In this document: piece after piece, positions 5,952 through 7,784 of the stretch | How positions within the stretch are numbered: the first letter of the stretch is position 1 | Layout of the letters: every line of letters begins with the position of its first letter | Source of the DNA: an uncultured Candidatus Saccharibacteria bacterium | GTDB taxonomy: Bacteria; Patescibacteriota; Minisyncoccia; Phycocordibacterales; CSBR16-119 | Length of the DNA stretch: 64,000 nucleotides | Assembly: GCA_964589975.1 (NCBI GenBank) | Contig: CAZPVH010000001.1 | Location: 100,853 to 164,852 of the forward strand | Reading direction: 5' to 3' | Made by a program: the position numbers and the translations under genes | Notes under the pieces: model-generated | Told to the model about the DNA's origin: nothing | Database searches by the model: none | The model's input: the letters and a program-made list of their open reading frames with translations, nothing else

Positions 5952-7784
5952 ATGGCTCCGATCTACGATCCTAATGATATTGAGAAAAAATGGCAATCTG
6001 TATGGGAAAAAGAGGGTATTTATCGTACCCATGATGATTTTTCAAAACCAAAGAAATATGTCCTAGACATGTACCCATACCCGTCTGGAGAGGGTCTTCA
6101 TGTTGGTCATCCAAAAGGATACATTGCAACCGATGTCTATTCTCGGTTTTCGCGCATGAATGGTTTCAGTGTCTTGCACCCGATGGGTTGGGACGCTTTC
6201 GGATTGCCGGCAGAGCAATTTGCGCTCAAAAATAAAATACATCCCAAAATTGCCGTTGCAAAAAACATTTCTCGCTATAAAGAGCAGCTTCAGGTTATTG
6301 GACTTGACTATGATTGGTCGAGAGAGATCAACACCACAGATCCGGAATACTACAAATGGACGCAATGGTGTTTTGTAAAAATGTTTGAACGCGGACTTGT
6401 TTACCAATCCCATGCCCCAATCAACTGGTGTCCTTCTTGCAAGACAGGACTTGCGAACGAAGATTTGGAAGATGGCAAATGTGAGCGTTGTGGTTCAGAA
6501 ATAGAACAGAAGCCTCTTCCGCAATGGGTGATTAAAATAACAGATTACAGAGACCGACTTGTTGAAGACCTGTCGCTTTTGCCGAAATGGCCGGAGTATG
6601 TAAAAACTAGTCAGAAAAACTGGCTGGAAAACCTTCATGACTGGGTTTTTGCTCGTCAGCGCTATTGGGGAGAGCCGATCCCACTCATTCATTGTGAAAA
6701 ATGTGGTACTGTCACAGTCCCAGAAAAAGATTTGCCGGTAAGACTACCTGAAGTAGAGAGTTATGAGCCAACTGGAACAGGTGAGTCGCCGCTTGCTGGG
6801 ATAACAGACTGGGTTAATACGACTTGTCCAAAGTGTGGCGAGGCCGCAAAGAGGGAAACCAACACTATGCCGCAGTGGGCCGGATCTTCCTGGTACTACT
6901 TGCGCTACATGGATCCGAATAATGCGGGGGTATTAGTCGACAAAGACAAAGAAAAATATTGGAATAGCGTTGATGTCTACGTCGGCGGCATGGAACACGC
7001 TACCCGCCACCTTATCTACGCCCGTTTTTGGCACAAATTCCTTTATGACATCGGTACTGTTACAACTAAAGAGCCATTCGAAGAATTGCATACTGTTGGG
7101 CTTATTCAGGCGGCGGACGGGCGCAAGATGTCAAAACGATGGGGAAATGTTGTGAATCCTGACGAGATGGTCGGGCGTTTTGGCGCTGACGCTTTCAGAC
7201 TTTATGAGATGTTTATGGGCCCTTTTGAACAGGCTGTGGCCTGGAATACGGATGGGGTTGTTGGTACAAGGAGATTTTTAGAGAAGGTTTGGCGCGGCGA
7301 GGGGTATTTCGGCGATACTAGCGAAGAGCTAGAGAGTCTTTTGCACAAGACTATAAAAAAAATAGGAGAAGATATTCAGAGTTTTAAGTTCAACACTTGT
7401 GTCTCGACCATGATGGTACTTGCAAACAAGCTCGATGATGAAAAATCAGTTTCGAAAGAAGACTATAAAAAATTTTTGCAGATATTAGCGCCATTTGCTC
7501 CGCACATGACTGAGGAATTGTGGCGCAACCTTGGGGACACAGCCTCGATCCATCTTTCTTCTTGGCCCAAATATGATGAGTCAAAAATCAAGGAAGAAAA
7601 GATTAAAATTGTTATCCAGATTAATGGTAAAGTTCGTGACGAGATTGAGGTTCATGCTGGTGCGAGAGAGGAAGAAGTGAAAACTCTCGTTTTAGCTCGC
7701 GAAAAAGTCGTCGAAAAGCTTGCTGGAGAGGAGGTAAAGAAGATAATTTATGTTGAGGGTCGGTTAATAAATATCGTTATTTAG
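5952..7784 (+). CDS. leuS: Leucyl-tRNA synthetase lacking the CP1 editing domain and the leucyl-specific insertion
   Basis: Class I HIGH-region motif (LHVGH), LeuRS signature [12 protein letters not shown], and KMSKR. KNWL is joined directly to [15 protein letters not shown]. In E. coli LeuRS about 190 aa of CP1 sit between those two points. Total length is 610 aa versus ~860. Confidence 0.85.
   Translation: [610 protein letters not shown]

Follow-up and report, generated by a model that had tools for sequence, protein, structure and literature searches.

Analysis of a 64,000-nucleotide stretch of contig CAZPVH010000001.1 from an uncultured Candidatus Saccharibacteria bacterium (hereafter, the window) revealed a leuS gene whose product, a leucyl-tRNA synthetase (LeuRS), lacks the editing domain CP1. 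CP1 editing is regarded as a near-universal safeguard of leucine-codon fidelity, to which the enzyme of Mycoplasma mobile has been the textbook exception. Judged by its sequence, the window gene is a bona fide bacterial-type LeuRS, naturally without CP1, from a bacterium resembling the Candidate Phyla Radiation (CPR). A preliminary description of this DNA had considered such a CPR-like enzyme notable and analogous to that of Mycoplasma, and the deletion boundaries, the absence of PF13603, the conservation of the deletion and the Patescibacteria affiliation all agree with it. On balance, we lean slightly towards a wider conclusion: that Patescibacteria dropped LeuRS proofreading repeatedly, in at least five of the lineages sampled, and converged on a five-residue junction, W-[IL]-x-x-[LM]-[HRK]-D-W, without the mycoplasma hairpin, and that the clade of the window carries no other LeuRS and no factor for editing in trans.

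A synthetase without its editing domain

The open reading frame (ORF) at 5952..7784 on the forward strand runs uninterrupted from ATG to stop and encodes 610 residues, exactly the coordinates and codon count first reported. Its product scored 781.6 bits against the NCBIfam model TIGR00396 (leuS_bact, bacterial leucine–tRNA ligase), above the equivalog cut-off of 548.4, with the match split in two stretches. The HIGH and KMSKS signatures in the Rossmann-fold core and the anticodon-binding and C-terminal domains of this family were all present; CP1 (PF13603), which follows the ZN-1 module in enzymes of the TIGR00396 type, was not. Pfam assigned the class I core to tRNA-synt_1 (PF00133, E 2.6e-57) and the helical domain to Anticodon_1 (Table 1). 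Chance similarity is no concern, since leuS is a strongly conserved orthologous gene. Every sequence string quoted in the preliminary description was recovered, among them LHVGH at residues 49–53, KMSKR and another at residues 77–88, and the HxxxH pair H349 and H353 and one further 10-residue segment were conserved as well. The 60-sequence alignment A1 contained 160 or more invariant columns, the catalytic motifs among them. The relatives named below are the best 120 database matches (P0001–P0120), whose taxon labels are those of the submitters of the metagenome-assembled genomes (MAGs).

Alignment with Thermus thermophilus LeuRS (1h3n) resolved the protein into three blocks, query residues 5–226, 226–387 and 390–610 matching T. 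thermophilus residues 4–225, 417–579 and 635–876. Relative to 1h3n, about 191 residues (CP1) and about 55 residues (the leucine-specific domain, LSD) are missing, with clean boundaries and nothing left between the flanks; T. thermophilus residues 226–416 are replaced by five residues, LENLH, and alignments with Neisseria gonorrhoeae and Escherichia coli LeuRS gave the same picture. Neither PF13603 nor a custom CP1 profile matched the window LeuRS, and the three-block match together with the missing PF13603 bears out the earlier claim of a clean CP1 deletion. In the AlphaFold model, the junction consists of a helix (residues 215–226), a short turn (NLHD) and a strand (231–234), with pLDDT 88 over residues 221–230. 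The five residues correspond to the first and the last four of the 15-residue linker found in some relatives, the ten-residue hairpin tip (GREEHDGKVT in P0018) having been removed in frame. These comparisons indicate that CP1, together with the tip of its tethering beta-hairpin, was deleted in frame. Forms with linkers of 16 residues or fewer contained none of the editing motifs TTRPDT, GTG and DERD.

An AlphaFold2 model built from a 60-sequence alignment had a mean pLDDT of 85.4 and a pTM of 0.84, and the top Foldseek matches in the PDB were all LeuRS (TM normalised to query, 0.79–0.90). Normalised to target, TM was highest for M. mobile LeuRS 3ziu (0.79–0.85; 0.85 for 3ziu_B), because the other targets carry extra domains. 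The same 637-residue protein was the best PDB match by sequence, in a single-block, end-to-end alignment with E 1e-170. Alignments and model together showed an enzyme with an intact synthetic apparatus, including the leucine-pocket residues, and without a hydrolytic editing site.

Table 1 Positions of leuS, its parts and the conserved neighbouring gene in the window
Feature	Position	Strand	Evidence
leuS, bacterial-type LeuRS, complete, 610 residues, without CP1	5952..7784	+	ORF; TIGR00396; PF00133 and PF08264, no PF13603; LeuRS matches in the PDB
HIGH signature HVGH, residues 50–53	6099..6110	+	H50, V51, G52 and H53 invariant in 60-sequence alignment A1
First Cys4 cluster CPSC...CERC, residues 160–180 (ZN-1-type insertion kept)	6429..6491	+	C160, C177 and C180 invariant; Pfam zinc-ribbon matches at residues 130–187
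CP1 scar, linker LENLH, residues 225–229, right after NW, in place of the ~191-residue editing domain	6624..6638	+	Alignments; AlphaFold model
Second Cys4 cluster CEKC...CPKC, residues 248–295	6693..6836	+	C248, C292 and C295 invariant, C251 nearly so
AADG tetrapeptide, residues 387–390, at the LSD site, equivalent to GKDG of M. mobile	7110..7121	+	Alignments; PMC3643597; lineage-wide
KMSKS-type signature KMSKR, residues 392–396	7125..7139	+	K392, M393, S394, K395 and R396 invariant
Anticodon-binding helical domain, residues 460–574	7329..7673	+	PF08264, E 9e-24
C-terminal tRNA-binding domain, residues ~550–610	7599..7781	+	Aligns with C-termini of 3ziu and 1h3n; beta strands and helices modelled, pLDDT 81–91
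murJ (lipid II flippase), conserved neighbour and marker of positional orthology	7786..9501	+	PF03023, E 1e-69

The insertion before KMSKS had also been described as missing. Its absence was confirmed, but not as a deletion specific to this gene: LLYARFW and KMSK lie 38 residues apart in all 120 best relatives, with or without CP1, and all 120 carry xxDG(R/K)KMSK, the signature ending in R (KMSKR) in 119. The LeuRS of Clostridia, Bacilli and Treponematales, among the matches listed from species-representative genomes, had the same spacing of 38, and those of Elusimicrobia about 72. The LSD is likewise missing in Bacillus subtilis and M. mobile LeuRS, the tetrapeptide GKDG substituting for it (PMC3643597). 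The corresponding AADG of the window enzyme fits the M. mobile type, but CP1-containing relatives show the same replacement, so that it is not diagnostic. Since the absence of the LSD is common to the relatives of the gene, the earlier comparison of 610 with ~860 codons stands in its first figure only, and the fair comparator is the ~800 residues of the nearest full-length relatives. LSD-less enzymes of ~800 residues (the Bacillus/Clostridia/Patescibacteria type) have the same catalytic core, the same 38-residue KMSK spacing and no LSD, but carry a CP1 of 185–215 residues with the editing motifs TTRPDT, GTG and DxRD; this type is the direct ancestor of the window enzyme, whose sister P0066 has 800 residues.

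Inheritance in place and repeated loss in Patescibacteria

The named best relatives all belonged to Patescibacteria/CPR (Wolfebacteria, Yonathbacteria, Pacebacteria, Paceibacterota, Minisyncoccia, Falkowbacteria, Nomurabacteria and others). About 24 protein clusters at 74–84% identity, from NCBI, JGI, ENA and Logan assemblies, were all CP1-less, and the deletion, whose presence in relatives had been proposed as a check, is thus conserved across independent assemblies. The junction in these clusters was 5 residues, except in three with 15 (P0004, P0018 and P0024). When linker length was counted between the W of NW and the D of DW..RQRYWG, under an alignment-based definition of core and CP1, the 5-residue class held the window LeuRS with some 20 close relatives (LxNL[HR]), joined by P0027 and P0071 (IA[NS]MH), and the 15–16-residue class comprised the three members of the window clade and, elsewhere, P0032, P0067, P0073, P0096, P0120 and L001, with 15 residues in M. 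mobile; the remaining relatives had 113–164, 185–215 (canonical) or 255–556 residues.

In a neighbour-joining tree (Kimura distances over 605 core columns, CP1 and linker masked, 100 bootstraps), the window clade, P0001–P0025, was recovered with a bootstrap of 100, and every member was CP1-less. Its sister (bootstrap 72) was P0066, a Wolfebacteria-labelled LeuRS with a 196-residue CP1. In the DNA fetched for clade members the junction was in frame and its codons differed. Comparison of orthologs gave dN of 0.14–0.20 with saturated dS, and dN/dS was 0.07 in the single computable pair; the LeuRS of the window clade is under purifying selection. Within the clade, the 15-residue P0004 was 82–84% identical to 5-residue members and 80–81% to the other 15-residue members, at nodes with bootstraps of 62–73; these nodes and identities do not decide the order of the two linker states, and either may be the older.

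Analysis of gene order showed leuS followed directly by murJ in the window, with a 1-nt spacer, and in P0018, P0007 and P0020. The full-length sister P0066 also has leuS-murJ, with one small GIY-YIG ORF between them. Because this position is shared with the full-length sister, the CP1-less gene is a positional ortholog of the canonical housekeeping leuS, which argues that CP1 was deleted in place and that the gene is not a short extra copy. The single nucleotide parting the leuS stop from the murJ start (7782–7788), a tight spacing kept in the relatives, suggests co-transcription and translational coupling.

Complete loss of CP1 was also found outside the window clade. P0096 (16 residues) was sister at 100% to P0109 (341 residues), P0067 (16 residues) was sister at 100% to P0028/P0057 (123 residues), and P0120/P0032, P0073 (16 residues) and P0027/P0071 (5 residues, bootstrap 92) lay inside a separate group (97%) of mostly full-length enzymes. 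Judged by these strong nodes, CP1 was lost completely in no fewer than four or five other lineages of Patescibacteria. The top 150 of a 50%-identity representative library held about a dozen more short LeuRS clusters, with linkers from 5 (LENLK, IAQMR, IDTLR, IGNLR) to 16 residues. Some of these short CP1-less LeuRS-like proteins fall outside Patescibacteria and Mollicutes, namely P0380/P0395 (labelled Gaiellales, 670 residues, a 30-member cluster), P0392 (labelled Bacillota), P0341 (labelled 'Nanoarchaeota'), P0303, P0374 and P0378, the linkers of this group spanning 5–16 residues.

CP1 appears to be a hotspot of both insertion and deletion in Patescibacteria. Of the 120 nearest LeuRS from Patescibacteria, about a third had a foreign domain nested inside CP1: NUDIX (PF00293), nucleotidyltransferase (PF14907/PF10706), alpha/beta serine hydrolase (PF06821/PF00561) or DUF559/restriction-endonuclease-like (PF04480/PF18741). 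Such domains spanned residues 386–500 in P0036, 500–627 in P0037, 383–520 in P0029, 243–406 in P0040 and 274–377 in P0045, and the CP1 regions of loci L002, L023, L030, L033 and L078 reached 472–556 residues. At the other extreme stood miniaturised CP1s of 113–123 residues (P0028, P0033, P0057, P0080, L038, L058 and L059) and of 142–164 residues (P0061, P0079, P0081 and P0107), in which peripheral segments are gone and TTRPDT, GTG and DERD are kept. A reading of these 113–164-residue forms as decay intermediates was rejected, since the editing-site motifs are retained; they are probably functional, and possibly the smallest functional LeuRS editing domains.

Among the surrounding genes, the ORF directly upstream of leuS (4008–5867, +) encodes a 619-residue protein whose N-terminus is hydrophobic; it also contains very acidic stretches rich in Cys, Glu, Asp and Pro and a weak peptidoglycan-binding domain. 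Relatives likewise have a related gene ahead of leuS. No family match was obtained for the four other ORFs on this side (133–3887). A 2391-residue ORF without a Pfam or NCBIfam match (9578–16753, +) separates murJ from a topA-dprA-serS block; in relatives topA follows murJ directly, and the giant ORF is therefore an insertion in a conserved gene order. The gene content of the window is typical of a small genome: murJ, topA, dprA, serS, dus, bipA, lysS and cysS, with genes for penicillin-binding proteins, a sigma-70-family factor and an AAA+ subunit of the DNA polymerase III clamp-loader type. Large surface proteins are encoded as well.

Probable function without editing and competing explanations

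We regard it as probable that the gene is the housekeeping leuS of a Patescibacteria bacterium and works without post-transfer editing, the housekeeping role being suggested by positional orthology and small genome size. The conserved motifs, the purifying selection and the activity of the analogous M. mobile and chimeric enzymes suggest that the window LeuRS leucylates tRNA-Leu. It would activate leucine and charge tRNA-Leu through its Rossmann core, Cys4 clusters, anticodon-binding domain and C-terminal domain. With no site for hydrolysis of mischarged tRNA-Leu, its accuracy would rest on discrimination in the synthetic site, perhaps helped by weak tRNA-independent pre-transfer hydrolysis of the kind found in the M. 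mobile enzyme. Because the hydrolytic site is absent, loss of post-transfer editing is expected, and with it mischarging of tRNA-Leu. This scheme supposes that the enzyme is catalytically active, that it is the sole LeuRS of its genome and that there is no trans-editing factor. The loss of CP1 could be tolerated if the organism, presumably an auxotrophic symbiont that lacks leucine biosynthesis, produces no norvaline, tolerates low-level ambiguity of leucine codons, or both.

Published measurements show how such an enzyme could operate. M. mobile LeuRS, without CP1 and LSD, charges tRNA-Leu, and its AMP formation with norvaline is low and tRNA-independent, at 0.16 per s (PMC3643597). Streptococcus pneumoniae LeuRS with CP1 swapped for the M. 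mobile linker is about half active and insensitive to a benzoxaborole (PMC3747510). In E. coli LeuRS the synthetic site by itself turns away Ile (1e-5), Met (1/19610) and Val (1/3260); what is left for editing is in essence norvaline (1/116), which cannot be made without the leu pathway (PMC4932531). Editing defects of mycoplasma LeuRS have been linked to mistranslation of leucine codons (Li et al. 2011, as summarised in PMC10057733). The preliminary description had offered two possibilities, tolerance of leucine-codon ambiguity or editing in trans; both belong in the account, but they do not exhaust it, as the synthetic site may be accurate enough if norvaline is not encountered.

Several observations weigh against a housekeeping enzyme that operates without editing. 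The contig is at least 329 kb long, of which the window covers 64 kb, and another full-length leuS, or an editing protein standing on its own, may be encoded elsewhere. No tRNA-Leu gene was present in the 64 kb (only tRNA-Gln). The CP1-less LeuRS-like proteins in MAGs labelled Gaiellales and Bacillota are possibly second copies there. Moreover, the five-residue linker lacks the nonapeptide hairpin that published work holds to be functionally important in M. mobile LeuRS.

No convergent compensatory substitutions were found in the core of the enzyme. Relative to the full-length relatives, the window clade had only four specific core changes, F41Y, K67S, A150V and L194I, all conservative, and none of the four was shared with other CP1-less lineages. 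The first of them (codon 41, 6072–6074) falls within MFPYPSG, a segment beside the leucine pocket that is invariant otherwise; position 41 is Tyr in 96% of the window clade, whereas Phe stands there in 100% of 80 full-length relatives and in every other CP1-less lineage. Neither a T-box nor any other Rfam element was found upstream of leuS, and the window held no IleRS or ValRS.

An auxiliary or specialised LeuRS paralog, for instance a resistance or regulatory copy, with a CP1-containing housekeeping leuS elsewhere in the genome, is an unlikely alternative. Second LeuRS copies do exist (the AgnB2 self-immunity LeuRS, PDB 5ah5, is an example), short LeuRS-like proteins occur in taxa with larger genomes, as in the 30-member Gaiellales cluster, and the 64-kb window is the only part of this genome seen. 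Set against these points, the gene stands before murJ just where the sister lineage has its canonical full-length leuS, its TIGR00396 score exceeds the equivalog cut-off, and it is under strong purifying selection, with its core unchanged save for the four conservative substitutions of the clade. Patescibacteria genomes are also small, and one relative, P0018, lies on a 616-kb contig.

We give equally little credence to a transfer of editing in trans to a free-standing CP1-derived or unrelated deacylase encoded elsewhere, for which the limited span of the window again leaves room. Isolated CP1 domains can deacylate in vitro, but we know of no natural free-standing CP1. Other synthetases are known to have trans-editing factors (YbaK/ProX and similar; PMC10057733). 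When all six reading frames of the 64-kb window were searched with a CP1 profile derived from 64 canonical Patescibacteria domains, however, there was no match (best E 0.31, with full-length controls at E 1e-84 to 1e-86), nor was there one in the 3–6-kb flanks of leuS in four CP1-less orthologs. The M. mobile precedent, moreover, is an organism that simply has no editing and mistranslates (PMC10057733).

Horizontal transfer from Mollicutes, or the reverse, with the deletion being the same as that of M. mobile, is very improbable. It was suggested by the 15-residue linkers of some Patescibacteria, IGKEEKDGVITYKMR and IGREEHDGKVTYNLR, which closely resemble the M. mobile linker IGKEEIDGKITYKLQ, and by 3ziu being the best PDB sequence match. 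The resemblance of IGKEEIDGKITYKLQ to IGKEEKDGVITYKMR arises because both retain the conserved tether strands NWIGxxEG and xxYKLRDW that flank CP1 in all full-length enzymes. Core identity of the window LeuRS to the M. mobile enzyme was 48%, versus 62–68% to full-length Patescibacteria LeuRS, and in the tree M. mobile LeuRS fell outside the window clade, which nests inside Patescibacteria as sister to a full-length enzyme. A search with the M. mobile sequence returned mycoplasma LeuRS as the nearest among the matches listed (P0121–P0240), CP1-less ones at 61–68% (also given as 64–68%) and full-length ones at 56–61%. Common descent with Mollicutes LeuRS was tested and not found, and transfer of the gene from Mollicutes was rejected on the strength of the tree and of the nearest relatives of M. 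mobile LeuRS. Since each nests among its own full-length relatives in separate clades, the CP1 losses of the window clade and of Mollicutes are independent. The CP1-less mycoplasma group comprises Metamycoplasmataceae, Mesomycoplasma moatsii, Mycoplasma todarodis, M. marinum and Mycoplasmopsis agassizii; it extends well beyond the "few Mycoplasma" of the preliminary description, with dozens of ~630-residue clusters alongside full-length mycoplasma enzymes of ~800 residues.

That the short gene reflects an error of assembly or sequencing, or a pseudogene in decay, is hardly conceivable: nothing but the unusual length speaks for it, the frame is unbroken, dN/dS is far below 1, the full-length model is confident and the same junction recurs in ~24 clusters from independent projects and samples, which refutes it.

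Significance and comparison with known systems

The parallel losses in CPR bacteria amount to natural replicates of an experiment on when a cell can do without proofreading, for example where norvaline is never made. If repeated loss without a second LeuRS or trans factor is true, a whole environmental lineage translates leucine codons without proofreading, the loss of quality control in translation extends from host-restricted pathogens to CPR, and the dispensability of CP1 is tied to the absence of endogenous norvaline synthesis. The window junction is the smallest natural connection across the CP1 insertion point and could help in the design of minimal or orthogonal LeuRS. Benzoxaborole antibiotics act by trapping tRNA-Leu in the CP1 editing site, and the window enzyme is predicted to be intrinsically insensitive to them; replacement of CP1 abolishes inhibition of S. 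pneumoniae LeuRS (PMC3747510). Public records of CP1-less LeuRS are often named only 'class I tRNA ligase family protein', a vague naming that may make genomes look LeuRS-less and thus constitutes an annotation hazard.

M. mobile LeuRS is reportedly also treated in Li et al. 2011 (PNAS) and Tan et al. 2012 (Biochem J). Like the window enzyme, it has no CP1, no LSD and an xxDG tetrapeptide before KMSK, with a similar length (637 versus 610 residues) and a TM of about 0.8 (3ziu; Yan et al. 2013, NAR, PMC3643597). The window enzyme shares the absence of CP1 with closure by a short linker, but is of independent origin, and its junction has 5 residues (LENLH) versus 15 in M. mobile. The nonapeptide hairpin of M. 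mobile (KEEIDGKIT) has no counterpart in it, although P0004, P0018, P0024 and other lineages have such a hairpin. Conversely, both Cys4 clusters are kept in the window LeuRS and absent from the M. mobile sequence. The hosts also differ, the window coming from an environmental CPR bacterium and M. mobile being a vertebrate parasite.

Split or trans-complemented LeuRS, of the Aquifex alpha-beta type or with a free-standing CP1, would have a separate gene for the missing module; none was found in the 64-kb window or in the flanks of the four orthologs. The yeast mitochondrial threonyl-tRNA synthetase (PMC4267643) is similarly a natural minimalist synthetase with a catalytic core, a tRNA-binding domain and no editing module, but it is a class II, organellar enzyme, and the editing domain concerned is a different one. 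The loss of editing domains in host-restricted organisms (Melnikov et al. 2018, as summarised in PMC10057733) shows the same association of a reduced-genome, host-dependent lifestyle with lost synthetase proofreading. A literature search returned nothing linking Patescibacteria/CPR to loss of CP1 from LeuRS, an earlier mention in the Melnikov et al. 2018 survey being possible. A naturally CP1-less, LSD-less minimal LeuRS was thus already known from M. mobile; to it the present case adds a shorter junction, a separate lineage and evidence of recurrent parallel loss.

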